Positions 12,501 through 37,683 of a stretch of 48,041 nucleotides of DNA are shown in pieces. This stretch comes from Chloroflexota bacterium. Its GTDB lineage: Bacteria > Chloroflexota > Dehalococcoidia > E44-bin15. The stretch is from NCBI GenBank assembly GCA_034189695.1, contig JAXHUA010000165.1, positions 1-48,041 on the forward strand, in the 5' to 3' direction. The translations under genes and the position numbers were made by a program. The stretch's first letter is position 1. The number at the start of each line of letters is the position of its first letter. The notes under the pieces were generated by a model. It did no database searches, was not told where the DNA came from, and saw only the letters and a list, made by a program, of their open reading frames with translations.

Positions 12501-13039
12501 TGGTCGACCTGGGCAACCGGGTGGGGCAAATCGATCCCGAGGACGGCAGCGCCGCGCCTGGGGGCCTGCTTGGGCGCGTGCTTGCGTCGAAGAATGCCCA
12601 GGGCCTGGATGATGGGGATGGGTGTGCTGTGGTGAGGAGCGTAGCCATGAAGGAGACGGCGGGCATCTTCATCATGACCGGCGATGCCGAGGGTCTGGTA
12701 GAGGAGCAACTGGTGAACGGAGTGGCCGCCGCGGCCAGGGCACTGGCCTACGTTGGCCGGGGTGTGGTGAGTCCGCGGACCAGCGCGGTAACCATTGACA
12801 GCAAGCTTTGCCGCGGGTGCGGCGATTGCGCCGCAATATGTCCGTATATCGAAATGAAGGAGCGTGGTAACGGTCTGTTCTATGCCTGCGTAGACCCGGG
12901 GTTGTGTCTCGGATGTGGGGCGTGCGTCGGGCGCTGTCCCACCGGGGCGATTCATCAGTCGGTCGAGAGCAACGAGCAGATAGTGGCTACCCTGAAAGGG
13001 CTGATGTTGGAGAGTCCAGAGCCGGTTGTGGCGACATGA
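9500..13039 (+). CDS. HdrL-like protein: degenerate HdrA modules around an intact GltD/NfnB-type NAD(P)H flavoprotein domain, plus ferredoxin domains
   Basis: N-terminal VIGGG and CVGCGRCEAAC. GltD-like APCRASCP..GRVCTHPCE, VGSGPAG, GIPRFRLP, VIGGGNSAVDAAR, FAGGD, EAKRCLNC. Then HdrA-N-like LCQCG..ANIREQCAWVH and a C-terminal 2x[4Fe-4S]. GTG 9500 with GAGGT RBS. Confidence 0.8.
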   Translation: MSRGVAVIGGGVSAAQAALTLAEMGVEVKVVTSSATLGWGDGCGGASLVSPEERLVVWPLLLRAATHPLVTLYTNAEVTAVAGKRGRLTVRATRRPRYVRENACVGCGRCEAACSVQVPVVVDGQRVLRSAIRAPVVHCKTAPSAYFIEKDGVAPCRASCPLGINVQGFVSLLSKGKVDEALTLIHEAAPLAGVLGRVCTHPCEDSCKRVEVDDPVYIQGLHRYAADNASSDVVYGRKVPVGTKREKVAIVGSGPAGLAAGWELARRGYRPTIFEQHAVVGGMLATGIPRFRLPWEVRYKEVEMIRALGVDIKTGVTVGRDVTISDLRERKYRAFFLGIGAHENYRLGIGGEHLEGVVDAMSLLFALNLRVGASVGSSVVVIGGGNSAVDAARIANRRSKGRVRVLCIWKEMTAVKEDVEDAIKEGVQIDYETAPVEILGDGGKVTGVRCQRTVGGDMSPENFRLPRPIPGTDFVIDADQVVVAIGQRPNTTVLNMKWLDVDGDSAIIRVDPLTLETNTPGVFAGGDCITGSNNVVSAVAAGLRAADSIDRYLRGRDMRKGRSLEKPAAVDIDVRNRDVLYYKRARMPGIPISKRRGNYEETALGLPADAAEREAKRCLNCATCSECMECERVCELGAVFHGDWMQQVDVPAEIVIDCAETGERGWAGGAGGEVQQGDLPQTAASGIYRLQIADDLDVGGRLARASAIAFEVAGELTVKEGPQLPGADFSVAPAASSRRSSSDGPTAKVGGTRVGVVLCQCGGSVSSVVDFERVTAEVERLPTVCVVETLSQACSEDGAHAVGALMDEWNLERVVLAACRCCGLEQMCYSCADRRVLCYQNLSRVLGEEGAGAVEFANIREQCAWVHQDDVEGATVAATGIVTAGVARAGRACTPVTAERPVVANVVVLGAGLCGLAAARSLVMRGCSVEVVDGPRSARDEMGDSNGYLAKRDDLLRELGERGVLVRPWPGRLELGGSCGSHEVVLENGRDSVCLTAGAVMVDLGNRVGQIDPEDGSAAPGGLLGRVLASKNAQGLDDGDGCAVVRSVAMKETAGIFIMTGDAEGLVEEQLVNGVAAAARALAYVGRGVVSPRTSAVTIDSKLCRGCGDCAAICPYIEMKERGNGLFYACVDPGLCLGCGACVGRCPTGAIHQSVESNEQIVATLKGLMLESPEPVVAT

Positions 13040-14667: not shown

Positions 14668-17133
14668 TTGGTTGAAGAGGAATTGAGAATCGGAGTGTTC
14701 GTCTGCGACTGCGGACTGAACATAGCGGGGTCGGTCGACACTGAGGAGGTGCGCGGTTTCGCCGAGGGGCTGCCCGGCGTGGTGGTGGCGGTGCGGAACA
14801 AGTACACCTGCGCTGACCCAGGTCAGGAGGAGATCAAGAAGCACGTCAGGGAGCACCGGCTGAATCGCGTGGTGGTGGCGTCCTGCACGCCGAGACTCCA
14901 CGAGAGCACCTTCCGCAACTGTGTGGCCGAGGCGGGACTGAACCCGTACCTGATGGAGATGGTCAGCATCAGGGAGCAGTGCAGCTGGGTGCATCTTCAC
15001 GACCGGGAGACGGCCACCGAGAAGGCCAAGGACATCATCAAGGTGGCCGTGGCCCGCGCCCGCCTGCTGGAGCCGCAGCAGGAGATGGAGATACCGGTCA
15101 CCGATGCCGCCCTGGTGATCGGTGGCGGGGTGGCTGGAATCCAGACCGCCCTCGACCTGGCTGATGGCGGGCACCAGGTGTATCTGGTGGAAAAGGAGCC
15201 GTCCATCGGGGGGATAATGGCCCAGATAGACAAGACTTTCCCTACCATGGACTGTTCCATCTGCGTGCTCGGCCCCAAGATGATGGACGCGGGCCGGCAC
15301 CCGCTCATCACGCTGTATGCCTACAGCGAGGTCGAGGAGGTTTCGGGGTACGTGGGCAACTTCAAGGTGAAAGTGCGCCGCAAGGCGCGATACATCGACG
15401 AGACGGAGTGCACGGCCTGCGGCGACTGCGCCTCGGTGTGCCCGGTCATCATACCCGACGAGTTCCAGGGGGGCTTCTCGTCACGGAAAGCGGCGTACAT
15501 TCCTTTTCCCCAGGCCGTGCCGTCGGCATACCTCATCGACATGGGGCATTGCCTGGGCAACAACCCGATAGCGTGCGACAAGTGCGTGGACGCCTGCGAG
15601 AAGCAGTGCATCAATCTCAATATGGAGGACGAGGTCGTCGAGCTCGATGTGGGGACCATCGTGGTGGCCACGGGCATGGGGATATACGACCCGACCGCCC
15701 TCGACGAGTACGGGTATACGCGATTCGAGAATGTCGTCACCAGCATCGAGTTCGAGAGGCTGATATGCGGCGGCGGGCCGACCGACGGGCACCTGGTGCG
15801 GCCGTCGGACCGCAAGACGCCGAAGCGTATCGGCTTCATACAGTGCGTCGGCTCGCGCACGGAGAACCGGGGCAACCCCTACTGCTCCAACGTGTGCTGC
15901 ATGAACACCATCAAGGACAGCCTGCTTATCAAAGAGCACCACCCGGATGCGGAGATCTATGTCTTCTACATGGACATCCGTGCCTTCGGGAAGGGATTCG
16001 AGGACCTGTTCCGTCGCTCCAAGGAGAGCGGCGTGCACTACATTCGCGGCCTGCCGGGCGATGTCAGCGAGGACCCGGACACCAGGAACCTGCTGGTGAA
16101 GGTGGAGAACACCACGGCGCTGCGCATCGAGGAGTACGACCTGGACATGGTGGTCCTGTCCGTGGGTCTGCAGGCGAACGATGACCTGAGACAGTTGACC
16201 CAGATGCTCAATATCAGCCAGACCGGCGACGGCTTCGTGATGGAGGCCCATCCCAAGCTGAGGCCGGTCGACGCGCCCACGCCGGGGATATTCTTCGCTG
16301 GCTCGGTCGAGGCGCCCAAGGACATCAAGGACAGCGTTACCCAGGCGGGGGCGGCCGCCGCTCGCAGCTCGATCATTCTTAACTCGGGCGTGCTGAGGAT
16401 GGAGGCGATCAAGGCGGTGGTGGACCTGGACAGGTGCACGTCGTGCGGCGTGTGCGCTCGTGTATGTCCCTTCGGGGCGATCACCGTGGATGTCAAGGGG
16501 AAGGGTGGGGCGCAAGTCGTGGCCGCGGCGTGCGCCGGCTGCGGCGCCTGTGCCGCCGAGTGCCGCTTCGACGCCATACGCATGCAGCACTTCAGCGACG
16601 AGCAGATAGAGGCCCAGGTGGACGCGGCCTTGGAGGAGAAGCCGGAGAGCAAGATCGTCAGCTTCCTGTGCAACTGGTGCAGCTATGCTGGAGGCGATCT
16701 GGCCGGCGTATCGAGGCTGCAGTATCCGCCCAACAACCGCTTCATCCGGGTGATGTGCAGCGGCCGGGTGGGCGAGAAGTTCATCCTTCGCGCCTTCGAA
16801 GAGGGGGCGGCGGTGGTGCTGCTGTCGGGCTGCCACATCAACGATTGTCATTACATATCGGCCAACCACTGGACGAAGCGCCGCGCCGAGCGGCTGTGGC
16901 GGCTCATGGAGAGGCTGGGCATCCGTGCGGAGCGGCTCCGGCTGGAGTGGATCAGCGCTGCGGAGGGGGCACGCTTCGCCGAGATCATGCGCGAGCTGGA
17001 AGAGCTGCGGAAGACGGTCACTGCGGAGGAGATCGAGCACACGAAGAGGGTGCTCGAGGAGCGGAGGCGGGCGAAGGAGGCACAGGTACGAGACGGCGAG
17101 GAGCCGGTATCGGCTGAGGTTGAGAGCGCCTGA
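14668..17133 (+). CDS. hdrA: Heterodisulfide reductase subunit A fused to a C-terminal MvhD domain
   Basis: 821 aa. FVCDCGLNIAG, SIREQCSWVH, IGGGVAG, DKTFPTMDC, IQCVGSR..YCSNVCC, HPKLRPV, then MvhD FLCNWCSY..RVMCSGR..GCHINDCHY. Confidence 0.95.
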   Translation: MVEEELRIGVFVCDCGLNIAGSVDTEEVRGFAEGLPGVVVAVRNKYTCADPGQEEIKKHVREHRLNRVVVASCTPRLHESTFRNCVAEAGLNPYLMEMVSIREQCSWVHLHDRETATEKAKDIIKVAVARARLLEPQQEMEIPVTDAALVIGGGVAGIQTALDLADGGHQVYLVEKEPSIGGIMAQIDKTFPTMDCSICVLGPKMMDAGRHPLITLYAYSEVEEVSGYVGNFKVKVRRKARYIDETECTACGDCASVCPVIIPDEFQGGFSSRKAAYIPFPQAVPSAYLIDMGHCLGNNPIACDKCVDACEKQCINLNMEDEVVELDVGTIVVATGMGIYDPTALDEYGYTRFENVVTSIEFERLICGGGPTDGHLVRPSDRKTPKRIGFIQCVGSRTENRGNPYCSNVCCMNTIKDSLLIKEHHPDAEIYVFYMDIRAFGKGFEDLFRRSKESGVHYIRGLPGDVSEDPDTRNLLVKVENTTALRIEEYDLDMVVLSVGLQANDDLRQLTQMLNISQTGDGFVMEAHPKLRPVDAPTPGIFFAGSVEAPKDIKDSVTQAGAAAARSSIILNSGVLRMEAIKAVVDLDRCTSCGVCARVCPFGAITVDVKGKGGAQVVAAACAGCGACAAECRFDAIRMQHFSDEQIEAQVDAALEEKPESKIVSFLCNWCSYAGGDLAGVSRLQYPPNNRFIRVMCSGRVGEKFILRAFEEGAAVVLLSGCHINDCHYISANHWTKRRAERLWRLMERLGIRAERLRLEWISAAEGARFAEIMRELEELRKTVTAEEIEHTKRVLEERRRAKEAQVRDGEEPVSAEVESA

Positions 17134-17158
17134 CCCGGATATGCGTCTTGGTGGGGGG

Positions 17159-17241
17159 TGAAGCCTTGCGAGATGTGGCAGGGGCGGGTCTCGCCTGGTT
17201 TCAAGTGTGACCGGTCGCTGAGTGCCTCCTCTCTTTTTTTT
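17159..17241 (+). terminator. Possible terminator region after the hdr operon
   Basis: Imperfect stem TGAAGCC..GCGAGAT / GTCTCGC..GGTTTCA (17159-17203) and a T8 run (17234-17241). The two are not directly adjacent. Confidence 0.3.
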
Positions 17242-17249
17242 GGGTGTAG

Positions 17250-17267
17250 CTACACGTAAACGTGTAG
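17250..17267. promoter_or_regulatory. Palindrome with perfect 8-bp arms, candidate operator
   Basis: CTACACGT-AA-ACGTGTAG immediately upstream of the DUF2851 gene. Related copies at 5898 and 24461. Confidence 0.65.
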
Positions 17268-17279
17268 GTGGTGTTGTGT

Positions 17280-18455
17280 ATGGAGGGGATAACGGAGAGC
17301 ATGGTGTGCCGCGTCTGGCAGGGCCGCGCGCTGCGGGGGAGGTGGCTGGTGATGGCGGACGGGCGATGGGTGCGTGTTGTGCATCCGGGCCGGCCGAATC
17401 CCGTTGCCGGTCCCGACTTCCACCACGCCATCGTGGCGACGGCTGGGGGCGAGGCCCGTGGTGACGTGGAGGTCCACGTGCGCTCAAGCTCGTGGCGGCA
17501 CCACGGGCATCATCGCGACCCGCAGTACAACGGGGTGATCCTCCACGTAGTGATGTGGGACGACGCGCCGGGGCGCACCGTGCGCGCCGACGGCGCCAGC
17601 GTGCCGGTGGTGGCGCTGCATCCGTACGTGGAGGTGACGGGCGCCGCGGCGATGGTGGCGGCGAGGGAGCGCTGCTGGAACGCGGCGAGATGGCTGGGTG
17701 TGGAGGGGATGGGACGGGTGCTCGACCGGGCCGGCGATGAGCGGTTTCGGGCGAAGGCAGGTCGTTTCGGCGACAGGCTGAAGGCGTGTGGGGCGGACCA
17801 GGCGGTGTACGAGGGGTTGATGCGGGCCCTGGGGTACGGGGGAAACGGTCGGGCCTTCGAGGCGCTGGCCAGGCGGGTGCCGTTGCAGGTGCTGGAGGAG
17901 TGCGCCGTGGCCGGCGGGTCGAGCGCAGTGGAAAGGGAGCTTGGGCGAGCGCTGGATGCCGGGGCTGGTGGACTGCCGTGGCGACGGTGCGGCATAAGGC
18001 CGGCCAACATGCCGTCGCGGCGCATCGCCGCCGCTGCGCCTCTGCTGGCGCGGTACGTGGGACGGGGTGGGCTGGGCCAGGGGCTGGCGTCGCTGGTGCG
18101 ACAGGCGGACGTGACGCGCGGGTATCGGGGGATTGAGGACGCTGTGATGGTGAGAGAGCCCGGGTCCGGCGCGTCGATTGGGAGGGGCAGGGCCCGCGAG
18201 ATGGTGGTGAACGTGCTGCTGCCGTTCTCATTTGCCCGGGAGGGGGCCGGCGCGCCGGGGGCATGGCATGCTCTGGAGCTGTACTGGAGCTATCCCCGGC
18301 TGGGGGAGAACCACATCACGCGGCACATGATGGAGCAGATAAACGTGGGGTCGTGGCTGGTGGGGTCGGCGAGACGCCAGCAGGGGCTGCTCCACCTGTA
18401 CCACAACCATTGTCTTGAGGGGGGCTGCGCCGCATGTCCGCTCACGCCAGCCTGA
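17280..18455 (+). CDS. DUF2851 family protein
   Basis: [56 protein letters not shown]...C..GGC..CP. Confidence 0.88.
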
Positions 18456-26083: not shown

Positions 26084-26432
26084 CGCGCCAACCAGTTGGC
26101 GTCAGGCCATCCCGTCAGTCACCGGCACACCCAATGCTGGAGGATGGCACCCGCGCTACCGAGACACGTCCCTCGCGAGAGGGGAGCTCGCACCGCAGGT
26201 CATCTGAAGTGGAAACCGGCTAGATGATTGATGCCTCTCGCTGCAACCTGATTGGGCGTTCACTCCCGCACGCCGCAGCAACCTGGCCCCACTTCGTACT
26301 CATCTTCGACCATCGCTTCTGACGGATAAACAGGCGTGTTGGCGCGTCTTTTCGAAGGCATGGCGCAGTGGCGCCACCGCACCGGGGGCAGGGTCTCAAC
26401 GCATCTGGCCCGTGACCGAAAGGAGGGCGGCG

Positions 26433-27533
26433 ATGGAGGGTGCACGCGGAGTACATGGCTGGCCCGATGACGATTCGGGCAACCCGTGGCACCAGCTTGA
26501 GCTGAGCGTTCAGCTCCTGCGGCTGATGCAGAGCGACTATCAGCAGGCCAGGAGACACCTGGAGGATATCTGCAGCGCCTTCGGCGATAGGGAGCACATG
26601 ACCAGGCAGTACCTGCACACCGCGGTGGCGCTGGCCACACCGGCGGGAGTCCCCTCAGTCGGCCCGACCACCGTGTTGCCTTTCGTGCTCGGCGTTCCGT
26701 GCCGTCCTGCGCCTGTCATCGCTGCGCCGCAGATGGGGGCCGCCACCAGCCTGGGGCCGATGCAGGTCCGCTGCCTTGGCCGGTTCGAGGTCCGTCTTGG
26801 CTGGACCAAGGTGGAAACGTGGCGGAGCAGAAAGGCCAAGACGCTGTTGAAGTACCTCGTGGCCCAGGGCGGGCGACCGATACCCAAGGACGTGCTTATG
26901 GAGACCCTGTGGCCCGAAGCCGCCCCGCAGGCGGCCAACAATAGCCTCAAGGCGGCGGTGCATGCCCTGCGGCAGACGCTTGACCTGAGCGGCAGGGACA
27001 GCGCTGCTGGAGACGCCGCTTCCTACGTCCTGTTCGTCGAAGGCAACTACCTTCTCAATCCCGAGGTCGAGGTATGGATCGACGTGGATGAGTTTGAGCG
27101 CCAGTGGGCAGAGGGGCGCCGCCTGGACAGGGAGGGCCAGGTGTCCGAGGCGACAGCGTTGTATGCAGCCGCCGAACGGCTGTACATCGGAGACTTCCTC
27201 GAGGATGACCTCTACGAAGACTGGACGTTGCTGCGACGTGAAGCGCTCAAGGATACCTACCTGGCCGTACTGAGCAAGCTCAGTGACCGGGCGATGCGGG
27301 ACGACGATTGCGAAAGCTGCATAGTGTACTGCCAGAAGACCCTGGCCAAGGACCCCTGCCGCGAGGACGCATACCGCAGCCTGATGCAGTCCCACAGCAG
27401 GCTGGGACATCGCAGCCGGGCGCTGAACTGGTACGGGATATGCACGAAGACGTTGAACCTGGAGCTGGATACCGCCCCTGACGCGGAGACGGCTGCCCTC
27501 TATCAGCGCTTGCTCAAAGGCGAGGTCATCTAG
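26433..27533 (+). CDS. SARP/AfsR-family transcriptional activator (wHTH plus BTAD, no NB-ARC domain)
   Basis: VRCLGRFEV, KAKTLLKYL, LMETLWPE, LKAAVHALRQ, IDVDEF, LYIGDFL..WTL..RE, DPCREDAYRSLM. AAGGAGG RBS. Confidence 0.92.
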   Translation: MEGARGVHGWPDDDSGNPWHQLELSVQLLRLMQSDYQQARRHLEDICSAFGDREHMTRQYLHTAVALATPAGVPSVGPTTVLPFVLGVPCRPAPVIAAPQMGAATSLGPMQVRCLGRFEVRLGWTKVETWRSRKAKTLLKYLVAQGGRPIPKDVLMETLWPEAAPQAANNSLKAAVHALRQTLDLSGRDSAAGDAASYVLFVEGNYLLNPEVEVWIDVDEFERQWAEGRRLDREGQVSEATALYAAAERLYIGDFLEDDLYEDWTLLRREALKDTYLAVLSKLSDRAMRDDDCESCIVYCQKTLAKDPCREDAYRSLMQSHSRLGHRSRALNWYGICTKTLNLELDTAPDAETAALYQRLLKGEVI

Positions 27534-27775: not shown

Positions 27776-27994
27776 GTGGGATACTACAACTCCTTCGTGG
27801 TCAAGATCTGGTCTGAAGAGCCGGGAGGGAGAGTGAGAGGGCACATACAACACGTGAGCAGCCAGGAGAGCTGTAATTTCCTGGACCTGGACAAGATAGT
27901 GGAGTTCATCACGGCGCATCTGGGCCCGCCGTCGCCAGCCGGGGAACGGGAAGAGCTGGGTGACGCCATCCATGAGAACAGGAACGAGCGTTGA
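27776..27994 (+). CDS. Small hypothetical protein, first gene of the CIS operon
   Basis: 72 aa, SFVVKIW..RGHIQHV..F.DL...EFI. AGGAG RBS and TTGA overlap with the ATPase gene. Confidence 0.75.
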   Translation: MGYYNSFVVKIWSEEPGGRVRGHIQHVSSQESCNFLDLDKIVEFITAHLGPPSPAGEREELGDAIHENRNER

Positions 27995-30201
27995 CGGGCT
28001 TGATTGAAGAGAAGACGGCGACCGGATTCGGCACCAGCCTGGAGCACCTGCTGGCCGAGCTGGGCCGGATTGACCTGATGATCCGCCTCAGGCTGCATCA
28101 GGCGCGTCTGAGGGACCCGGGCACCGTCGAGGACGAGTTCCGCGGGCTGTACATCTCGGAGGGTGAGGTGGAGGCATTCCTCGCGGGCGCCACTCCGCTA
28201 TTCGGCGACGACGCCTGGAGCTGCGCGGGTGATGCCGGCGTGGTAGCCATTGAGGATGCGCTGGAGCAACGGCGACGGGAGATCGCTCGCAGGAAGGCGG
28301 TGGCCCTGAGCAACGGTGTGGAAATGCGTCTGCACCGGCTGAGCCAGCTGTTCGGCCTGAGCGCCTTCGATATCGATGCCCTCCTGGTATGCATGCTGCC
28401 TGAGGTCGACCTGAGGTACGAGAGGCTCTACGCCTATCTGCACGACGACGTCACCAGGAAGAGGCCGAGCATCGACCTCGTGCTGCGGTTGCTGTGTCCC
28501 GCGCTCGAAGAACGGCTGGCGGCGAGAGAGGCCTTCTGCAACGATGCTCCGTTGCTGAAGGGCGGCGTCCTCCAGGTTGAAAGTGACCAACATGGGCGAG
28601 CGGCGTCGTTCCTGAGCCAGGTCCTCAGTATCGATCAGCGGGTGGTGGGCTATCTGCTGGGGTCGGACCAGCTCGATGCGCGCGTAGCGCTCTTTGCCGA
28701 ACTGGTCGAGCCTGGGGTGGGGTGGCCGGAGTTGATACTCCCCGAGGACGTGAAGGACCGGCTGCGCGGACTGCCGCATCGCGACCGGGATGGGCTGGTG
28801 TGCTATCTGCACGGGCCCTACGGCGTGGGACGGCGAACGGCGGCCGAGGCCATGTGCCGGGAGGCGGGCGTCCAGCTTCTGGTGGTCGATGTGGGTCGGC
28901 TGGGGTGGGCCGAGGTCTCCGTTGAGGCGGCGGCCGACCTGGCGATGCGAGAGGCGAGCCTGCGGGGCGGGATGATGTACTGGCACGGCTTCGAGGCCGT
29001 GCCAGCCGAGGGGGAAGCTATGCTTGGCCGTGTGGCGGCCAGGCTGGCGGGCTGGTCAGGCGTGACGCTGCTCGGCGGCGAGGCCCCGTGGGTGCCGCAG
29101 GGCTGGCATGAGCAATGTCATTTCGTATCCATCGAGATGCCGTTCCCGACGCATGCGCTGCGAAGGCGCCTGTGGCAGGCGCACCTCGACGGACAGTGCC
29201 CGGGGGACGATGAGGTGAGTGCTCTGGCCGACAGGTTCCATTTCACTGCAGGACAGATCCGGGACGCGGTGGGCACGGCTGAGAGCCTGGCTCTGGCCGA
29301 GGGACGGCCGGACGACGGCATCGGTCTCGGCGACCTGTATCGGGCGTGCCGCATGCAGTCGAATCAGACCCTCTCCAGCCTGGCGAAGAAGATAGAGCCA
29401 CGGTATGACTGGGACGACATCGTGCTGCCCCCCGACCAGGCGGCGCAACTGCGTGAGATATGCGAGTACGTCCAGCAGCGCCACGTGGTGTACGGCGAGT
29501 GGGGGTTCGGCGGCAAGCTGGCCACAGGTGGCGGCCTCAACGCGCTCTTTGCCGGGCCATCCGGGACAGGCAAGACCATGGCCAGCGAGATTATCGCCAG
29601 TGAGCTGCTGCTCGACCTGTACAAGATCGACCTCTCGGGTGTCGTCAGCAAGTACATCGGGGAGACGGAGAAGAACCTGGACAGGGTCTTTCGTGAGGGC
29701 CGGGACTCGAACGCCATCCTCCTGTTTGACGAGGCTGACGCTCTCTTCGGCAAGCGCTCCGAGGTGCGCGACTCGCACGACCGCTACGCCAACATCGAGG
29801 TGGCCTATCTGTTGCAGAAGATGGAGGAGTACGAAGGCATCGTAATCATGGCCACCAATCTGCGCAAGAACGTGGACGAGGCCTTCGCCCGCCGCATGCA
29901 TTTCGCCGTCGAGTTCCCCTTCCCCGAGGAGCACTACCGGCATGAGATCTGGAAGCGTGTCTTCCCGCTGGAGGCGCCGCTGGCTGAGGACGTGGACCTG
30001 GCGTTCCTGGCGCGTCAACTGAAGGTTACCGGCGGCAACATAAAGAACATCGCTCTGGCAGCGGCCTTTCTGGCCGCAGCGGACTCATCGGCGATCGCCA
30101 TGGGGCATGTCATAAAAGGTGCGAAGAGAGAGTATCAGAAGATCGGGAAGCTCTGCACCGAGGCTGATTTCGGCCGGTATTTCGACGTGGTGAAAGGCTA
30201 G
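27991..30201 (+). CDS. CIS AAA+ ATPase (Afp15/Pvc15-like)
   Basis: 736 aa. YAYLHDDVTRKRPS N-domain, degenerate first P-loop GPYGVGRRT, intact GPSGTGKT, VVSKYIGETEKNL, LLFDEADALFGKRSEV.DSHDRYAN. Confidence 0.95.
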   Translation: MTGLIEEKTATGFGTSLEHLLAELGRIDLMIRLRLHQARLRDPGTVEDEFRGLYISEGEVEAFLAGATPLFGDDAWSCAGDAGVVAIEDALEQRRREIARRKAVALSNGVEMRLHRLSQLFGLSAFDIDALLVCMLPEVDLRYERLYAYLHDDVTRKRPSIDLVLRLLCPALEERLAAREAFCNDAPLLKGGVLQVESDQHGRAASFLSQVLSIDQRVVGYLLGSDQLDARVALFAELVEPGVGWPELILPEDVKDRLRGLPHRDRDGLVCYLHGPYGVGRRTAAEAMCREAGVQLLVVDVGRLGWAEVSVEAAADLAMREASLRGGMMYWHGFEAVPAEGEAMLGRVAARLAGWSGVTLLGGEAPWVPQGWHEQCHFVSIEMPFPTHALRRRLWQAHLDGQCPGDDEVSALADRFHFTAGQIRDAVGTAESLALAEGRPDDGIGLGDLYRACRMQSNQTLSSLAKKIEPRYDWDDIVLPPDQAAQLREICEYVQQRHVVYGEWGFGGKLATGGGLNALFAGPSGTGKTMASEIIASELLLDLYKIDLSGVVSKYIGETEKNLDRVFREGRDSNAILLFDEADALFGKRSEVRDSHDRYANIEVAYLLQKMEEYEGIVIMATNLRKNVDEAFARRMHFAVEFPFPEEHYRHEIWKRVFPLEAPLAEDVDLAFLARQLKVTGGNIKNIALAAAFLAAADSSAIAMGHVIKGAKREYQKIGKLCTEADFGRYFDVVKG

Positions 30202-30214
30202 AGGGCGGACTGAT

Positions 30215-31705
30215 ATGGCAAGAGGCAAGGGAAAGAGGCCGGGCGGTGGCCGCCCGGCGGCCCGCACGAGCCGCAAGGGCAGCGTGCGCTCGCCGGGGGC
30301 CGGCAAGCCGGCCAGGCACGGCAGCCATGTGCGTGTGCCGTCGCCGGTCTCGGAGAGGACGCCGGACGAGGTCGCCGAGCACAAGCGCCTCGCCATGCTG
30401 GGCGACGGCCGGCTGTCTCATACGGCGAACGCCGCGCAGAAGGCAGACGTGCTGAACATGCTTCAGCAGGGTTACGGCAACGCCTATGTGCAGCGGGTCG
30501 TGGACCGCATCCGGGCCAGAAGGGACGATGGGCTGTCATCGCGGGACAGCTCTGCCGGCATTGAGCGGGGCATCGCCGGCGAGAGGGGTGCGGGCCGGCC
30601 TCTGGAGCCGAGGGTCAGCTCCGAGATGGGGGAACGTTTTGGCCGCGGTCTGGACGACGTGCGGGTACACGACGATGCCGCCGCAGACGGGCTGGCGAAG
30701 GGACTGGGTGCGCGGGCGTTCACCGTCGGTGGTGACGTCTTCTTCCGCCACGGCAGCTACGCCCCGGATTCAGTCGAAGGACAGAGGCTGCTGGCCCACG
30801 AGCTGACCCACGTGGTGCAGCAGACGGGTGGCAAAGGCGGCGGCCAGGCCCCGGTACAGTTCATGCCCGACGTTGCACCGGACGTTGACATGGCCATACG
30901 GAAGTGGCTCAGCGCTGAACCAGCCGCCTCCATTCTGAAGCCCGAGGCGCTCGCGGCGCGGGTACGGAGCGCGATACCCGAGGCAAGCGGTCTGTCGGAT
31001 GACGACGTCCAGGCGGTGTACCACCGCTGGAAGCTGTCGCGCAGCCTGACAAAGCCCTTGCTGCCAATGGGCCCCGCACCGACACCACCGGCCAAGGAGC
31101 CTGTGGGCGGTTCGGCGCTGGCCGACACAGTCAAGAAGGTCACCGACGCCTTCAAGAGCATACCGACCCAGGTCAAGGTCAGCGTGAAAGGCGGTTCGGT
31201 CGTTGTCGACGCCAGCGGGGCCACGAGCAAGCTCAAGGTGGACAAGGCGACGCTCACGGCGGCCGCCGGATGGAATGGCAACTTCAAGATAGGAGCAAGC
31301 TATCGCGGCTCGGGGTCGCTCGCCGCCGGCCAGATGGTCAATCTGTCGGCGAGCGTGAACGCCAAGAAGTACTCCATAAGCCTGCGCATCGGCCCCAGTG
31401 TCACCGCGATCGACAAGCTGCCTGACATCGTCGAGAAGGCCGAGGAGGGACTGGGAGACCTGCTGTCGGACATAGGCTCACTGAACCTGGAGAGCCTGGA
31501 CGATGTGAAAGCGAGTGCCGGACGGATCGCCGACCACGTGAAGTCGATAAAGACGGCAGTCGATGCCTGCTCCAAGCTCGAAGGGGCGAGAACGGGGGGG
31601 GTGCCACCCATATTCCTGAGCTTGAAGGCGCAGTTCCCCACAGCCAAGGGAAAAGAGGAAGGCGTGCCCACGAGTGTCATGGGCATGATAACGATACCGT
31701 TCTAG
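30215..31705 (+). CDS. DUF4157 (eCIS core) domain cargo/effector protein 1
   Basis: GRPL...VRVHDD..A..LGARAFTVG.DVFF..LLAHELTHVVQQ. C-terminal domain not recognised. Confidence 0.88.
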   Translation: MARGKGKRPGGGRPAARTSRKGSVRSPGAGKPARHGSHVRVPSPVSERTPDEVAEHKRLAMLGDGRLSHTANAAQKADVLNMLQQGYGNAYVQRVVDRIRARRDDGLSSRDSSAGIERGIAGERGAGRPLEPRVSSEMGERFGRGLDDVRVHDDAAADGLAKGLGARAFTVGGDVFFRHGSYAPDSVEGQRLLAHELTHVVQQTGGKGGGQAPVQFMPDVAPDVDMAIRKWLSAEPAASILKPEALAARVRSAIPEASGLSDDDVQAVYHRWKLSRSLTKPLLPMGPAPTPPAKEPVGGSALADTVKKVTDAFKSIPTQVKVSVKGGSVVVDASGATSKLKVDKATLTAAAGWNGNFKIGASYRGSGSLAAGQMVNLSASVNAKKYSISLRIGPSVTAIDKLPDIVEKAEEGLGDLLSDIGSLNLESLDDVKASAGRIADHVKSIKTAVDACSKLEGARTGGVPPIFLSLKAQFPTAKGKEEGVPTSVMGMITIPF

Positions 31706-31747
31706 CCGTCGTATGGCTGTACGTCGGGGGAACGGCTGGAGGTCGAG

Positions 31748-33571
31748 ATGCCGGAGCGTGCACACAGAGAGGGTGACGAGCAGAGAGCCCAGCGCAGGCA
31801 GAAGGCGGGGCAGTCAGAGGCCGGGCATCTCAAGGCGCGGGACGAGTCGCCCGAGGCGACGGCAGACGTGTCGCCGCTGGAAGGCCAAGCCGCCATCCTC
31901 AGCGACGGGCGCTTCTCCCACCCGGCCAACGCGGGGCAGAAGGCGCAGGTGGCAAGCCATCTCCAGCGAAGCCATGGGAACGCTTACGTGCAGCGCCTGC
32001 TCGATTCGAAAACGGTCCAGGCGAAGCTCACCGTGAACCCGCCCGACGACCAGTACGAGCGGGAAGCCGACAGGGTGGCCGAGGCCGTGTCGCGGGCTCC
32101 AGATACCGGCGTCCAGCGCCAGGAGGAGGAAGAGGAGGAGGAGGGGGAGGCAGCGGTGCAGGCCAAACCGGCCGCTGGCCACAACCTCCAGGGGCTGCAG
32201 CGACAGGTCGAAGAGGGAGGGGAAGAAGAGGAGGTGGAGGAGGAAGCGGTGCAGACAAAACCGGCCGTCAGTCAGAGCGTCCATACGCTGCAGCGACAGG
32301 TTGAAGAAGGAGAGGAGCAAGAGGAGGAAGAGGAAGCGACAGCACAGACCAAACCAGTGGCAGCACGGCCCCCCAAGGTATCCAGGGGGCTGGAGAGGCG
32401 CATCGACGCCGCGCGTGGCGGCGGCCGGCCGCTGGGCGATTCCGTGCGGGCCCCGCTTGAGAACCAGTTCGAGCGCGACCTCAGCCAGGTGCACGTCCAC
32501 ACCGACCATGAGGCGGACAGGCTGAGTCGTGAACTCCAGGCCAGCGCCTTCACCTCAGGGCGGGATGTGTTCTTCCGCCAGGGAGCATACGACCCCCATT
32601 CCCAGGCTGGCATGGGTCTCTTGGGCCATGAGGTGACTCACGTGGTGCAGCAGGGCGCAGCCGGACCGGACAGGTCCCAACCCGTCACTGGGAGTCCACC
32701 GGTACAGGCTTCGCCTCTTCCTGAGGCCGCGGCCATCCAGCGCCAGGGTGCAGCACGCGAAGAAGAGGAAGAGCCGTGGTGGCTGAAGAAGGGGATCACG
32801 GCGAAGCGTGGCGTTGGCATTGACAAGAAGGCGGCGGCTGAGAAGCTGGGGAGCGTTAACAACACGGCGAGAGTCAACGCCGTGTCATTCTCCGATGAGG
32901 TGGGCAAAGCGTGCGATCATTTCGAGGTCTATGCCAAACCGAGGATATCGGCTCTGAAGGGTGAGCTCACAGCGGGCGAACTGGTGAGTTCCCTGCTGAG
33001 CGCGGCCCTGGGGCCTCTTCGCCAGCAATTCACCGAGCGCGTCGCGACCGTGCTCGGAGAGAAAGTGACGGCAGCGGTGACCGGCAAGTTTGACACGGCG
33101 GTGAAGGACGCCGCCAAGAAGGTTGTGGCAAACGAGTCGGATGTGAAGGCCCTCGAGGACGCTGTGGCCAAGGCGTGCGCCGGTGCAAAGGACGCCGCCA
33201 CCAGACTCAAGGACGCGGTGGGGGAGAACCTCACGCCTGCCATTGACGCCACGCAGAGGCGACTGTACGAGGACCTGCCGCTGACCGAGGCGCAGGACGA
33301 GATGGTGGGCATGTTCTACGAGGCGCCGGTGCGGAACGTTGACGACTACCTTGAGAGGTTCTACGGCGTCCCCAGCAAGGCCAAAGCCAGGGCACTCCAG
33401 GTCCAGGTGTACTACCACCTGGTGCGGCGCTTCGAGGAGAAGGTCATTGAGGCCGAGTGGCCGATGGACTTCGAGGAAAGGCTGCGCAAGAGAGCGCTGA
33501 AGGGACACATCGCCAGTGAGCGGGCACTCAGGGCGGCCGAGGAGCGCAGGAAAGCGCTCGAAGGAGAGTAG
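31748..33571 (+). CDS. DUF4157 (eCIS core) domain cargo/effector protein 2
   Basis: VQAKLTVNPPDDQYEREADRVA, acidic QRQ-E(n)-QxKP repeats, VHVHTD..AFTSGRDVFF..LLGHEVTHVVQQ. Helical C-terminus. Confidence 0.9.
   Translation: MPERAHREGDEQRAQRRQKAGQSEAGHLKARDESPEATADVSPLEGQAAILSDGRFSHPANAGQKAQVASHLQRSHGNAYVQRLLDSKTVQAKLTVNPPDDQYEREADRVAEAVSRAPDTGVQRQEEEEEEEGEAAVQAKPAAGHNLQGLQRQVEEGGEEEEVEEEAVQTKPAVSQSVHTLQRQVEEGEEQEEEEEATAQTKPVAARPPKVSRGLERRIDAARGGGRPLGDSVRAPLENQFERDLSQVHVHTDHEADRLSRELQASAFTSGRDVFFRQGAYDPHSQAGMGLLGHEVTHVVQQGAAGPDRSQPVTGSPPVQASPLPEAAAIQRQGAAREEEEEPWWLKKGITAKRGVGIDKKAAAEKLGSVNNTARVNAVSFSDEVGKACDHFEVYAKPRISALKGELTAGELVSSLLSAALGPLRQQFTERVATVLGEKVTAAVTGKFDTAVKDAAKKVVANESDVKALEDAVAKACAGAKDAATRLKDAVGENLTPAIDATQRRLYEDLPLTEAQDEMVGMFYEAPVRNVDDYLERFYGVPSKAKARALQVQVYYHLVRRFEEKVIEAEWPMDFEERLRKRALKGHIASERALRAAEERRKALEGE
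32111..32356 (+). repeat. Three imperfect intragenic repeats (VQRQ/LQRQ, poly-Glu, QAKP/QTKP)
   Basis: CTGCAGCGACAGGT and CAGACxAAACC recur at DNA level, with GAG/GAA runs between them. Confidence 0.8.
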
Positions 33572-33665
33572 GCGGAGAGGGCCTGATGCAGATGTCAACG
33601 CGGAAAGTGGCTCTGGAGACTGCGGTGGCTGATACGTGCCGTCAGTCCAGAGGGCGGGCATAGAG

Positions 33666-35189
33666 ATGGCGGATAGACACACGAAGACAGAGACGCGGAG
33701 TCGCGAGCCCGAGAAGGCCCGTGAGGGGCAAAGGCCTCGCGACGCAGCCCCGCAGCCTATGAACGAGCTCGGCGGCGACGCTGCGGTATTCGAGAGCCTC
33801 CTCGCCACACCGGCGATGGGACTGCCGGTGGAGCGCCACGCGGCCACTCTGAACGATGCCCGGTTCAGCCATCGGGCGAACGCTGGCCAGAAGGCGCGCA
33901 TGGTGAGCCAGCTCCAGCGGCACTACGGCAACGGTCATGTGCAGCGGGTGCTGGACTCCGTGACGGCGCAGGCGCCTGACTCGATCGTCCAGCGCCAAAC
34001 AGAGGACGACGGCGCGCGTGCACTCCACACAGAGCCCCTATCCGAAACGGCTGAAGGGGTGCCCGGCAACATGGGGACACGTATCTCGACCCCGGCGAGC
34101 GGCCGCCCGGTTGTCACACAGCAGGCTATGAGTCCGGTGATCGCCCGCTCGCCGGGTGAGCCCGGCACCACCACCACCGAGGAAGAGGAGATGGAGGAGC
34201 TGATGGAGGGGGCGGCCCCCGGCGAGCTGGACTTGGAGGAACTGGCCGCGGCCTACAGCGAAGGAACGCCGCTGGAGGAGGCCGAGTCCCGCGCCGGGAC
34301 TCCCAGTGAGGAATGGCCCGAACTGGAGCCGGGTCAGCGTACCGCGATCAGGGGTCTCATCAGCAGTGGGCAGCGCCAGGGAGCGGTCGACCGATTGTGG
34401 GACCTCCTGGCCCTGCCTCAGCGGAGTCGGGTCTCCCCGACCCCCCAGGTGACCACGGAGCTGGGGATAGTCGACGGTGTTCCCGTGTCGAGAGGGGGGG
34501 CACTGACCTCCGGGCTGTGCATCCCGTATGTCGTTGCCACCACGGCCTGCGCCGGCTGCCCCGAATCGGAGCACTGGCAGCGACACAACAACGACGAGCT
34601 GCGCGCCGTTATCCAGATACACAACCGCGTATTTGAGCGCTCGCCGGCCGAGGCGGTGGGCCAGCTCCTCAGCACCGTAATGCACGAGTACACCCACGTG
34701 CGACAGATGCTCGATGAGGGTATCCACGAGGGAATCTCTTTCGCCACCTATCCGCCAGGCTCCCGCGCCGCAGTCGGGGAGAGGGAGTTCGTTGCTTCCG
34801 CAGCCAGCGTGTCCCCGGCCGAGCGGCGACGCATGGAAGCGCTTCAGGAGGTGGACGCCGTCTGTTCTGAGTTAGAGAACCTCGACAGGACCGGCCTCAC
34901 CGGGCTGGGACTCCAGGGGGTAATCAACTATCTGTGGGACAACTACAGGCAGTACGTCTCCAGCCTCGGAGGCGACCCCGCAGACCCGGCGGTGGAAGAG
35001 CGCACGTATCAGAGCCTGCGTCGCGGCAGACAGCGGTTCGTCGCCTATCTCCCACATTCACCGTACCCGCCACGCCATAGGCAGTACCTCCTCGAGCGCT
35101 GCCCTGAGGACTATGACCCCAGCCTCATGAGTGGCAGGGAGCTGACCGGCCCCGCGGCCGGCGAACACACGGAGGCGGAATCGGAGTGA
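33666..35189 (+). CDS. CIS cargo/effector protein 3, putative gluzincin metallopeptidase without the DUF4157 core
   Basis: Shares the N-terminal motif with cargo 1 and 2. HEYTH plus downstream EVDA. Alternative start at 33636. Confidence 0.75.
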   Translation: MADRHTKTETRSREPEKAREGQRPRDAAPQPMNELGGDAAVFESLLATPAMGLPVERHAATLNDARFSHRANAGQKARMVSQLQRHYGNGHVQRVLDSVTAQAPDSIVQRQTEDDGARALHTEPLSETAEGVPGNMGTRISTPASGRPVVTQQAMSPVIARSPGEPGTTTTEEEEMEELMEGAAPGELDLEELAAAYSEGTPLEEAESRAGTPSEEWPELEPGQRTAIRGLISSGQRQGAVDRLWDLLALPQRSRVSPTPQVTTELGIVDGVPVSRGGALTSGLCIPYVVATTACAGCPESEHWQRHNNDELRAVIQIHNRVFERSPAEAVGQLLSTVMHEYTHVRQMLDEGIHEGISFATYPPGSRAAVGEREFVASAASVSPAERRRMEALQEVDAVCSELENLDRTGLTGLGLQGVINYLWDNYRQYVSSLGGDPADPAVEERTYQSLRRGRQRFVAYLPHSPYPPRHRQYLLERCPEDYDPSLMSGRELTGPAAGEHTEAESE

Positions 35190-35216
35190 ACGGAAAGAGC
35201 CTGAGAGAGGGTAGCC

Positions 35217-36035
35217 ATGATCGCAGACCTTGACGAGACCATCAAGCAACTGCTGATGCAGAAGGGCTCTCTGGACTCAACCGAGGTGGACATCTGTTTC
35301 GACATGCCGGGACAGGAGTGGTCGGCGGGCATCACCAAGCCCACGATCAACCTCTACCTCTATGACATCAGAGAGAACCACGACCTGCGGCTCTACGACT
35401 GGGAGACCGAGCGTAACGAGGACAAGACCGCCACCAAGAGGAGGATGCCGGTCCGGGTCGACCTGACGTATCTCATCACCGTGTGGACGAGCAATGTCGA
35501 CGACGAGCACCGGCTGCTCTGGTATGTACTCGCTGCCCTATTTCGCTATCCTTTGATCCCCACGGACGTGTACCAGGGCGAACTGGCGGGCACGGATATG
35601 CTTATCTCCACCCTCGTCGCTCAACCAGACGGCCCGTTGCGGAACCCGGCCGATTTCTGGGCGTCGCTCGATAATCGCTTGAAGGCCTCAATCAACTACG
35701 TAGTCACCGTGCCTCTAGACCTTGACGTGCACGTCTCCGCTCCCGTCGTGAGCACCAGGGTCCTTGGCGTGCGCGGCATAGACCAGGCGGACAGCGAGGA
35801 GCGACTCCAGGTGAAGGGAGTGCTGCACGAGAAAGGCAAACCGCACCAGGTGATTCCGCAGGCCACCCTGTTCATCAAGGAGGCGGGCAGGACCGCGACG
35901 ACGGACGAGCAGGGGCGCTGGGCTTTCAGCAAGCTGTCGCGAGGCGAGTACACCGTCAGGGTTAGAGCGCCGGACCGCAAGGAGAAAGAGATGGTGCTGA
36001 GCGTACCGAGTCTCAGCTATGACATCGAGGTCTAG
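35217..36035 (+). CDS. CIS cap/terminator (Afp16/Pvc16, DUF4255) with a C-terminal carboxypeptidase-regulatory-like domain
   Basis: MIADLDETIKQLL, ICFDMP..W, PTINLYLYDIREN, DLTYLITVW...DEHRLL, and C-terminal TTDEQGRWAF..L..GEYTV. Confidence 0.9.
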   Translation: MIADLDETIKQLLMQKGSLDSTEVDICFDMPGQEWSAGITKPTINLYLYDIRENHDLRLYDWETERNEDKTATKRRMPVRVDLTYLITVWTSNVDDEHRLLWYVLAALFRYPLIPTDVYQGELAGTDMLISTLVAQPDGPLRNPADFWASLDNRLKASINYVVTVPLDLDVHVSAPVVSTRVLGVRGIDQADSEERLQVKGVLHEKGKPHQVIPQATLFIKEAGRTATTDEQGRWAFSKLSRGEYTVRVRAPDRKEKEMVLSVPSLSYDIEV

Positions 36036-36132
36036 GTGAACAAGACCATTCATTCAGGAGGCAAGGAGGGAGGAGAGATGTAGGCGATCACCGCACACAA
36101 GTAGCGATAGAACGAAGGAAGGAGGGAACACT

Positions 36133-37683
36133 ATGGCACCGCAATATCTTTCCCCTGGTGTCTACGTTGAAGAGGTGGACAAGGGCGCCAGACCCATTGA
36201 GGGCGTTGGAACGGCGGTGGCTGCCTTTCTCGGCTTCGCCGAGGATGGGCCGGTGAACCAGGCCACGCTGATTGCCAACTGGACGCAGTTCCTCAACGTG
36301 TTCGGCGGGTTCATCTCGGGCTCATACCTGGCCCACTCTGTGTACGGGTACTTCAACAACGGCGGCGGCAGCTGCTACGTCACCCGCCTGCCCGACGTCG
36401 AAGGCGTGGGAGAGCCGAAGGCTCCGCAGGCGCAGGCTTCCCTGCCCGCCCGCGGCAAGGCCTCGCTGGAGAGCCTGAGCGTTACGGCGCTGGAGCCCGG
36501 CGAGGTCACGGTTGAAGTGGCCGCCCCCGGCGAGGAGGCTGCCGAGGACGAGTTCAACCTTGTCGTGCGCAGGGGCGGTACCGAGGAGGTCTTCGAGAGC
36601 GTCACGCTGAGGAAGGGCAGGGGAGTGCGCAATGTGGTGGAGGTGGTCAACAAGGAGTCGAAGCTGGTACGCGTGGCGGAGCGCGAGTCGAGCCTGAGCC
36701 TGCCGGAGCGGGTTCCAGCGGCCGGGACGTATGCTCTCACCGTATCGGAGTCCAAGGCGGTGGCGGCCAAGCAGGTGGGCACCGATCTCATTATGGGCGA
36801 TGCCGCCGAGCGGACCGGCCTGGCCGGTTTTGAGGCCGCCGACGACGTGACCATGGTGTGTGTGCCGGAGCTTATGGGGCTGTACCAGCGCGGGGCGCTG
36901 TCGCTGGAAGGGGTCAAGGCGGTACAGCAGGCCATGCTCGACCACTGCGCCAACATGAAGGACCGGTTCGCCATCCTGGACAGCCCGCCGGGCATGAGCC
37001 CGCAGCAGATCAGGGACTGGCGGCTGAACGAGGCTGGCTACGACTCCAAGTATGGCGCGGTGTACTACCCCTGGATCAAGGTAGCCAACCCCCTGGGCAA
37101 CGGCGAGGCAGTGCTCGTCCCGCCCAGCGGCCACATGGCTGGCATCTACGCCCGCAGCGATACGGAGCGCGGCGTACACAAGGCGCCGGCGAACGAGATC
37201 GTGCGAGGAGCACTGGGGCTGGAGGCACAGATCACCAAGAGTGAGCAGGACTCCCTCAACCCTGAGGGCATCAACTGCATCCGCACCTTCCCCGGGCGGG
37301 GTATCCGCGTCTGGGGCGCCCGCACACTCTCGAGCGATGCCCAGTGGCGCTACATCAATGTGCGACGCCTGTTCAACTTCGTTGAGGAATCGATCGAGGC
37401 GGGCACCCAGTGGATCGTCTTCGAACCCAACGACATGGACCTGTGGGCGCGCATCAGACGGGACGCAAGCGCCTTCCTGACCCGGGTGTGGCGTGACGGG
37501 GCGCTCTTCGGCGCCACGCCGAGCGACGCCTTCTACGTCAAGTGTGACGAGGAGCTCAACACGGTGGAGGTGCGCGACGCCGGCCAGGTGATAATCGAGA
37601 TAGGCATGGCGCCGGTGAAACCGGCTGAGTTTGTCATCTTTCGCATCAGCCAGTGGGCCGGTGGCGCTGCTGTAGCAGAATAG
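36133..37683 (+). CDS. Contractile tail sheath protein
   Basis: YLSPGVYVEEV, YFNNGG, YYPWI, PPSG..AGIYARSD..RGVHKAPAN, GIRVWGARTL, WRYINVRRL, PVKPAEFVIFRI. Confidence 0.97.
   Translation: MAPQYLSPGVYVEEVDKGARPIEGVGTAVAAFLGFAEDGPVNQATLIANWTQFLNVFGGFISGSYLAHSVYGYFNNGGGSCYVTRLPDVEGVGEPKAPQAQASLPARGKASLESLSVTALEPGEVTVEVAAPGEEAAEDEFNLVVRRGGTEEVFESVTLRKGRGVRNVVEVVNKESKLVRVAERESSLSLPERVPAAGTYALTVSESKAVAAKQVGTDLIMGDAAERTGLAGFEAADDVTMVCVPELMGLYQRGALSLEGVKAVQQAMLDHCANMKDRFAILDSPPGMSPQQIRDWRLNEAGYDSKYGAVYYPWIKVANPLGNGEAVLVPPSGHMAGIYARSDTERGVHKAPANEIVRGALGLEAQITKSEQDSLNPEGINCIRTFPGRGIRVWGARTLSSDAQWRYINVRRLFNFVEESIEAGTQWIVFEPNDMDLWARIRRDASAFLTRVWRDGALFGATPSDAFYVKCDEELNTVEVRDAGQVIIEIGMAPVKPAEFVIFRISQWAGGAAVAE

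Follow-up and report, generated by a model that had tools for sequence, protein, structure and literature searches.

How does an extracellular contractile injection system (eCIS) recognize the proteins that it carries? Such particles are under development as programmable protein-delivery devices; the DUF4157 domain, now listed as eCIS_core (PF13699), has been used as an effector marker (PMC8213781; PMC11297309). The question is raised by a 48,041-nucleotide stretch of a Chloroflexota genome (assembly GCA_034189695.1, contig JAXHUA010000165.1, positions 1 to 48,041; hereafter the window), in which three tandem genes between an AAA+ ATPase gene and a cap gene encode proteins, here called cargo 1 to 3, that share a short N-terminal motif. 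The original prediction, made from the letters of the window, took this motif rather than DUF4157 for the address label. Our analysis identifies the motif as a conserved, predicted helix-turn-helix element of about 40 amino acids (aa), which combines with the leader that precedes it into a portable module of about 100 aa at the N-terminus of the cargo. The three genes lie in a 2.34-Mb genome (186 contigs, 97.5% complete) and are built as follows:

30215..31705, plus strand: cargo 1 (496 aa), with leader, motif, DUF4157 core and an unannotated C-terminal domain (Pfam, AlphaFold2)
30215..30391, plus strand: disordered basic leader of cargo 1 (59 aa; 15 K/R, 4 D/E; from composition and a predicted local distance difference test score, pLDDT, below 50 for residues 1-47)
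30392..30514, plus strand: motif copy 1 in its 41-column form (36-aa form 30398-30505; profile E 2.7e-27)
30599..30832, plus strand: DUF4157/eCIS_core of cargo 1, residues 129-206 (PF13699 genome scan, E 9e-31, 103.3 bits)
31748..33571, plus strand: cargo 2 (607 aa), with leader, motif, EREAD motif, acidic QRQ repeats, DUF4157 core and an unannotated C-terminal domain (Pfam, translation)
31892..32014, plus strand: motif copy 2 (36-aa form 31898-32005; profile E 8.4e-28)
32122..32334, plus strand: 93-bp tandem repeat in 2.3 copies, coding for the acidic linker between motif and DUF4157 in cargo 2 (Tandem Repeats Finder score 270, 79% matches)
32429..32659, plus strand: DUF4157/eCIS_core of cargo 2, residues 228-304 (PF13699 genome scan, E 9.5e-29, 95.4 bits)
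33666..35189, plus strand: cargo 3 (507 aa from ATG 33666; open frame from GTG 33636), with leader, motif, acidic linker and a C-terminal domain with CxxC and HEYTH, without a DUF4157 core (no Pfam family)
33843..33965, plus strand: motif copy 3 (36-aa form 33849-33956; profile E 1.1e-27)
34683..34697, plus strand: HEYTH (HExxH) in the C-terminal domain of cargo 3, unchanged among 13 of 13 family members

The three 36-aa segments proved to be exact translations as originally quoted, with 19 of the 36 positions invariant and pairwise identities of 21-24 residues. At the DNA level the copies agree at 70-76 of 108 nucleotides (65-70%), and where two of them encode the same residue they frequently do so with different codons (14 of 23, 6 of 21 and 13 of 24 positions in the three pairs). 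Because the DNA identity is low and the synonymous codons differ, the likeness reflects old divergence under selection on the protein rather than a recent duplication or gene conversion. The leaders ahead of the 41-column motif measure 59, 48 and 59 aa in cargo 1, 2 and 3, respectively (in cargo 3 counted from ATG 33666, preferred over GTG 33636 as inferred from 12 homologues), which agrees with the charged leaders of about 50-60 aa described at the outset; likewise, the C-terminal parts of the three proteins are as unrelated as had been claimed, with no significant pairwise similarity (best BLASTP E 0.64).

To follow the motif beyond the locus we used three profiles: A2, made from the three copies and extended to 41 columns; A6, with 19 rows; and A7, with nine closer rows. 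Scanned against the whole genome, A2 matched the three cargo genes and no other place (E 8e-28 to 3e-27; 22 scored candidates), so that this genome holds no orphan copies. Against 1.84 billion cluster representatives the same profile retrieved a family of 424 at E<=1e-3, 83 of them at E<=1e-10, and the family statistics on position, conservation and cores given below refer to the best 150 of the 424. Their 155 aligned motif copies are most strongly conserved at N30 (1.00), G29 (0.99), V33 and Q34 (0.97 each), N13 and Q25 (0.94 each), D5 (0.93), and R7 and R35 (0.89 each), with L24 at 89%, and the consensus reads A-L-L-G-D-P-R-F-S-H-P-A-N-A-x-Q-K-A-R-I-V-x-x-L-Q-R-x-Y-G-N-A-Y-V-Q-R-L-V. These conserved residues are mostly polar, as we infer would be expected of an interaction surface and not of a folding core. 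The position of the motif is equally constrained: it starts at a median of residue 59 (interquartile range 51-60) and between residues 40 and 69 in 129 of the 150 proteins, behind leaders that consist of 32% K/R/D/E and 18.5% hydrophobic residues. The extended form proposed originally, D.R.SH.ANA.QKA followed by LQ...GN..VQR, holds for the close clade and has to be narrowed beyond it, because its first half is kept in that clade and in Pyrinomonadaceae, whereas more distant Chloroflexota loci retain L-Q-x-x-x-G-N-x-x-V-Q-R alone. Five of the 150 proteins (P0004, P0005, P0007, P0009 and P0018) carry a second, internal copy, for example at residues 54-92 and 316-352, and may be either products of neighbouring cargo genes that have fused or proteins that truly bear two tags.

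In the AlphaFold2 prediction the leader is disordered and leads into a short helix; a turn at D-x-R-F-S-H-P then separates this from a long helix, which a break at G-N separates in turn from a second helix, and disordered linkers come after it. For cargo 1, modelled with a 61-row alignment, the pLDDT is below 50 over residues 1-47, reaches block means of 81-94 over residues 51-100 and 96-98 in the DUF4157 core, and the predicted helices span residues 50-62, 65-68, 70-87 and 89-107. In the cargo 3 model (13 rows) the motif is again helical, with block means of 57-71 and disorder on either side (residues 1-63 below 50, in GTG numbering). Existing family collections do not describe this element: Pfam at E<=10 gave no family on the N-terminal 101-112 residues of the three proteins apart from a chance match to an Axin motif (E 0.058), no NCBIfam model covers the motif in cargo 1-3, and a search of the PDB with the 19-row profile returned two chance matches (E 0.25 and 0.45) and no solved chain with the motif. 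When cargo 1 residues 45-112 were looked up in a protein-cluster atlas, the nearest clusters consisted of small proteins without a name (score 0.93, 118-136 shared features), which we regard as a lead only.

Is this element separable from DUF4157, as the original prediction held? Membership of eCIS_core was defined as a match above the 22-bit cut-off to its 79-position profile, which includes an HExxH helix. On this definition the core is present in cargo 1, cargo 2 and a small protein encoded at 38719-39393, and a whole-genome scan at E<=1 returned the same three only. The small protein (first ATG at 38746) has the core (E 9.9e-23) and no motif match, and cargo 3 has the motif and no core, either in Pfam at E<=0.01 or in the PF13699 genome scan at E<=1; both halves of this earlier claim thus stand, the second with one caveat. 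The MHEYTHVRQM segment of cargo 3 resembles the HExxHVxQ helix of DUF4157, and when the cargo 3 family was compared with 83 cores by hhalign, 11 columns were aligned at a probability of 42%. A cryptic DUF4157 core in cargo 3 is rejected at this profile level; its C-terminal domain is possibly a distant zincin relative.

The same separation recurs throughout the family. The motif occurs with eCIS_core in 80 of the best 150 representatives and without it in 70, of which 42 are at least 300 aa long (33 of these are devoid of any HExxH) and 28 are shorter; in some of the 70 a Peptidase_C70 or DUF922 domain follows the module directly. Among 66 motif open reading frames (ORFs) in 37 public loci, 40 have the core and 26 do not. 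Where both elements are present in a family protein they are joined by a linker of 3 to 531 aa (median 77), often of low complexity. Over residues 1-108, cargo 3 shares 51-52% identity with the N-terminal ends of two other proteins, one of 875 aa and one of 442 aa that has DUF4157 and YkuD domains, and the likeness ends right after the motif; in the cargo 3 family the invariant columns gather in the motif, with none in the linker that follows it. Judged by sequence comparison, the cargo 3 N-terminus shows the pattern of a module that is portable and has been recombined with different payloads.

Other parts of the cargo proteins have features of their own. The repeat-coded linker of cargo 2 is glutamate-rich and punctuated by LQRQ, like the acidic QRQ linkers of many relatives. 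Between hairpin and DUF4157 the same protein has a second short motif, P-P-D-D-Q-Y-E-R-E-A-D-R-V-A (about 32030-32090, residues ~95-115); patterns of the E-R-E-A-D type occur in 52 of the best 150 representatives and accompany DUF4157 (42 of 80 with the core versus 10 of 70 without). The C-terminal domain of cargo 3 (34300-35189) is conserved and unannotated, with an invariant C-x-G-C, the HEYTH, and a downstream D-E-G-x-H-E-G; 13 homologues were found, at 63-100% identity. Fold searches were uninformative: the cargo 3 model drew generic helical matches alone, over residues ~382-506 (best Z 8.3, within the range regarded as common), and the cargo 1 model coiled-coil-like matches alone, over residues ~394-462 (best Z 7.9), with hairpin and core uncovered.

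We next consider where the motif occurs. In the 61 closest genomes strong matches were confined to three, namely G000, G008 with three copies in tandem and G032 with two, and each of these carries the cap domain Pvc16_N, itself present in 5 of the 61. A weak match in G024 (E 1.5e-3, in a 2379-aa ORF, covering profile positions 3-30 only, without GN..VQR) was rejected as chance. In a phylum sample of 401 genomes, 76 with and 325 without Pvc16_N, A2 matched at E<=1e-3 in nine genomes (one of them, G283, unpublished), all with Pvc16_N, and in 0 of the 325 others, counts that are not a statistical test since kin are not independent. The wider profile A6, which was partly built from the same phylum genomes, whose matches are therefore by construction, reached 22 genomes, 20 of them Pvc16_N-positive; 13 lie beyond the nine of A2, and 11 of these 13 are positive. 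The original prediction would have been undermined by a motif common in genomes without contractile injection systems; the motif is instead tied to genomes that have one, and usually to the eCIS locus itself.

An A7 scan of public species genomes extended this picture to 37 motif loci, mostly from Dehalococcoidia and other Chloroflexota, and including six from Pyrinomonadaceae (Acidobacteriota) with the full-length motif and one from Streptosporangiaceae with the C-terminal half only. Of ten hits looked up by cluster for their taxonomy, a single one was named, as a DUF4157 protein from a Chloroflexota metagenome-assembled genome. When the eCIS proteins of the window were used as tblastn queries, eCIS genes were found within 10 kb in 28 of the 37 loci and the ATPase in 20; in 15 of these 20 the motif starts no more than 230 nt past the end of the ATPase gene. 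Two to six motif genes stand in tandem in 18 loci. All but one of the 37 loci lie in eCIS-positive genomes, and eight of the nine without nearby eCIS genes have Pvc16_N elsewhere in the genome. The suggestion that the motif could find orphan effectors is accordingly upheld for these off-locus genes elsewhere (8 of 9 in eCIS-positive genomes), although not for the genome of the window, which has no orphan copy. The largest array seen, in a Dehalococcoidia metagenome-assembled genome (MAG; locus L051, 1895-10500), comprises six tandem motif ORFs after the ATPase, one of them with a DUF4157 core. In the Pyrinomonadaceae MAGs (L033-L036, L039 and L040) the gene order is sheath, tubes, cap, ATPase, cargo, unlike that of the window, and still the motif gene directly follows the ATPase.

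The neighbourhood of the three cargo genes is that of a complete eCIS locus, which runs on the plus strand from 26.4 kb to the end of the window (Pfam on the window ORFs). Sheath, gp19-type tube, Pvc16-type cap, VgrG/gp5-like spike with PAAR, gp25, Baseplate_J wedge and AAA+ ATPase are all encoded on the plus strand at 27991-47396, and no capsid family was found among the 19 ORFs scanned by Pfam, which lie beyond the first 26 kb of the window. The genes around the cargo are:

26412..27533, plus strand: BTAD/Trans_reg_C transcriptional activator upstream of the eCIS operon (Pfam BTAD E 1.8e-23, Trans_reg_C E 3.3e-7)
27991..30201, plus strand: Pvc15/Alg15-like AAA+ ATPase with an N-terminal winged helix, a degenerate first AAA region and an active C-terminal AAA domain (Pfam)
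35217..36035, plus strand: Pvc16-like cap/terminator (Pvc16_N E 2.1e-31)
36133..38152, plus strand: sheath (36133-37683) and tube (37700-38152) (Phage_sheath_1 E 5.8e-25, Phage_sheath_1C E 9.6e-21, Phage_T4_gp19 E 8.7e-35)
38719..39393, plus strand: small DUF4157-only protein among the tube genes, with the core at residues 43-119 (80.6 bits) and no motif
39409..48041, plus strand: rest of the structural operon, namely a second tube, a tape-measure-like ORF (39856-41535, no Pfam), CIS_tube, VgrG-like spike, PAAR, gp25, Baseplate_J, Tail_P2_I and one more ORF, truncated where the window stops (Pfam)

The ATPase matches the winged-helix family PF22977 (E 2.2e-58, residues 7-234) and the AAA family PF00004 (E 4.1e-30, residues 519-643), with a weak AAA_33 match at residues 270-303; it has 2365 homologues at E<=1e-20, and PF22977 and PF00004 occur together in all those listed. 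A BTAD homologue stands upstream of the ATPase in 7 of the 37 related loci. Between the tube gene and the gene for the small DUF4157-only protein lies a 121-aa ORF (38172-38537) with a zinc-ribbon-like end, C-P-E-C...E-V-E, and no Pfam or NCBIfam family. The C-terminal tail of the small protein (39298-39393) resembles that of the tape-measure-like ORF (41446-41535; 9 of 23 residues identical, 16 of 23 similar, pairwise E 0.002), and the two tails may dock at one and the same site of the baseplate or spike. Farther upstream, positions 1-26000 hold long ORFs such as those at 9401-13039 (1212 aa) and 15481-18264 (927 aa, minus strand).

How do these cargo proteins compare with those of characterized systems? 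The closest counterparts are Cgo1 and Cgo2 of AlgoCIS from Algoriphagus machipongonensis (PMC8894135), whose disordered N-terminal domain (NTD), central DUF4157 and variable C-terminal domain (CTD), encoded by tandem eCIS cargo genes, are matched by cargo 1 and cargo 2. Cargo 3 lacks the DUF4157 element of this architecture and, unlike Cgo1 and Cgo2, is a natural example of the module unaccompanied by DUF4157. Loading in AlgoCIS requires the NTD upstream of DUF4157 and the AAA+ protein Alg15, but neither DUF4157 itself nor the CTD (2026 preprint, 10.64898/2026.05.27.728243), so that a role of the NTD rather than DUF4157 as loading signal is already published for that system. The AlgoCIS NTD has been described as disordered, system-specific and free of any conserved motif, whereas the window cargo have a predicted helical hairpin after the disordered leader, and the hairpin recurs across phyla.

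The leaders themselves resemble, in disorder and composition, the signals of Photorhabdus virulence cassettes (PVCs), which are N-terminal, disordered, hydrophilic stretches of ~50 aa that bring payloads into the tube in dependence on a three-domain AAA+ ATPase (PMC11495950). Cargo 1 and cargo 3 have such disordered, hydrophilic first ~50 residues, as seen from pLDDT and leader composition; the PVC signal is the first 50 aa, however, and the window motif lies at residues 60-100. PVC-type lineage I signal peptides fall into alignable sequence groups (PMC11495950), and PVC effectors are described as being without DUF4157 (10.64898/2026.05.27.728243). The 'eCIS signal peptide' score of Danov et al. 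2024 (PMC11297309) likewise addresses hydrophilic, disordered first 50 aa and is correlated with the presence of DUF4157, being strong in 61% of DUF4157 proteins. With 32% charged and 18.5% hydrophobic residues, the leaders of the window family fit this score, which differs from our motif in being one of composition and not a sequence motif; neither 'sequence motif' nor 'no conserved' appears in the main text of that paper. In the CIS of Streptomyces lividans, Sle1/Sle2, the N-terminal region of the DUF4157-less cargo is bound by a small DUF4157 protein encoded in the cluster, which also binds the spike complex (PMC13277306), and the window locus has a like pair. The Sle1 N-terminus is set apart by its description as a 440-aa coiled coil related to tape measure proteins, as against a 40-aa hairpin after a leader.

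A full-text search of the literature (subscription-only papers fell outside its scope) did not find the motif strings in any paper, and the papers retrieved on conserved N-terminal cargo motifs in contractile injection systems do not describe this motif in title or abstract; a conserved, predicted-folded, profile-searchable element inside the loading region appears to be absent from published work. As a concept, the motif is akin to MIX, FIX and RIX of the type VI secretion system, conserved N-terminal markers that sit on diverse toxin domains and can be used to find effectors away from the machine. It differs from them in serving a different machine and in being far shorter than a domain.

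These observations show that the module exists and is under purifying selection, that it is modular and keeps a fixed N-terminal position, and that it occurs in eCIS genomes and loci only. What might it do? Its place in the protein, its modularity, its confinement to eCIS and its closeness to the ATPase gene, together with the published AlgoCIS and PVC experiments, lead us to read it as a probable loading sequence. Our analysis favours this as probably the best explanation of the evidence as a whole, and on balance we expect the module to drive cargo loading. The module is joined either to DUF4157 with varied C-termini or straight to effector domains of other kinds. As a loading sequence it would be recognized specifically by its folded hairpin; its leader would be an unstructured segment engaged by the Pvc15/Alg15-like AAA+ ATPase encoded upstream, which would feed cargo proteins into the lumen of the tube; and DUF4157 would be an optional accessory. 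That the ATPase is the reader of the hairpin is a possibility that we consider somewhat less likely than not. More tentative still is a specific form of the idea, in which the helix-GN-helix hairpin would be a sequence-defined zip code of a large eCIS lineage, docking on the winged-helix N-domain of the ATPase while the leader enters the AAA+ pore. The design would be comparable to that of Pup with Mpa, where a tag is combined with an initiation region.

Several points weigh against a loading role for the module. Published loading sequences are described as disordered and as not conserved from one system to another (10.64898/2026.05.27.728243), and the signal defined for PVCs and by machine learning is the first 50 aa; the motif lies just beyond this stretch and has a predicted fold, so that it may be something other than the published signal. 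Many of the 70 core-less proteins appear to be metagenomic fragments; 28 of them are shorter than 300 aa. Only 20 of the 76 eCIS-positive phylum genomes hold a detectable motif copy, and the motif is therefore not a general eCIS signal and belongs to a subset of eCIS lineages. Two weak, partial A6 matches (E 1e-4 and 3e-4) fall in genomes without Pvc16_N, one of them the unpublished G229, and the public locus L041 lies in a genome (G452, completeness not given) without a Pvc16_N match. Finally, the small DUF4157 protein of Streptomyces binds the N-terminal region of a cargo that lacks DUF4157 (PMC13277306), and the window locus encodes a small DUF4157-only protein of this kind.

This last point leads to the main rival, in which the hairpin is a DUF4157-docking element, acting in cis in cargo 1 and 2 or in trans in cargo 3 with the 38719-39393 protein, while DUF4157 would fasten the cargo, inside the tube, to the spike or baseplate; the reader would then be a structural adaptor and not the ATPase. 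A DUF4157 effector does co-purify with baseplate proteins in S. davawensis (PMC11126660), and cargo 3, with hairpin and no core, and the 38719 protein, with core and no hairpin, form a complementary pair. The motif is also predicted with higher pLDDT where a core follows 20-30 residues on (81-94, versus 57-71 without a core), as docking on DUF4157 would explain, but this contrast is confounded by the depth of the alignments (61 versus 13 rows). Similarly, a short linker of 16-25 aa separates the two elements in 28 of 81 motif-plus-core proteins, against which stand linkers of up to 531 aa, often of low complexity. We consider this explanation unlikely, though it is the one that survives best beside a loading sequence.

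A function outside loading is still less probable. The module might keep toxins inactive or soluble in the producer, or might, after injection, help the toxin to refold, to cross a membrane or to bind its target, for example; roles in producer immunity, as a chaperone or in refolding have been discussed for eCIS toxin N-termini and DUF4157 (PMC8213781; PMC11297309; 10.64898/2026.05.27.728243), and the ORF list shows no evident immunity gene between the three cargo genes. One invariant element ahead of unrelated C-termini, however, is better explained by a common partner on the side of the machine than by many functions on the side of the target, and both the fixed N-terminal distance and the neighbouring ATPase gene suggest that the element is handled in the producer. 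That the likeness is mere inheritance from tandem duplication, without function, is very improbable: the three genes are tandem paralogues and two of them also share a DUF4157 core, but the copies differ at many synonymous sites of conserved residues at 65-70% nucleotide identity, the motif persists through 150 representatives and several phyla between a leader and a linker that have diverged, the invariant columns of the cargo 3 family avoid the linker, and the module recombines with unrelated C-termini.

Set against these alternatives, the module is a payload mark of one eCIS lineage found in Chloroflexota, Acidobacteriota and at least one actinomycete. Its distribution would be evidence from nature for the independence of N-terminal module and DUF4157, and a conserved, predicted-folded element at a fixed place in the loading region would give mutagenesis and binding assays a handle in the search for the receptor. 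If the hairpin were indeed a zip code, residues 1 to ~110 would be a portable loading tag, and a single hidden Markov model would list what these systems carry, even where the genes lie far from the locus. The motif profile would list payloads of the eCISs of uncultured Chloroflexota and Acidobacteriota, among them off-locus genes and genes without DUF4157.

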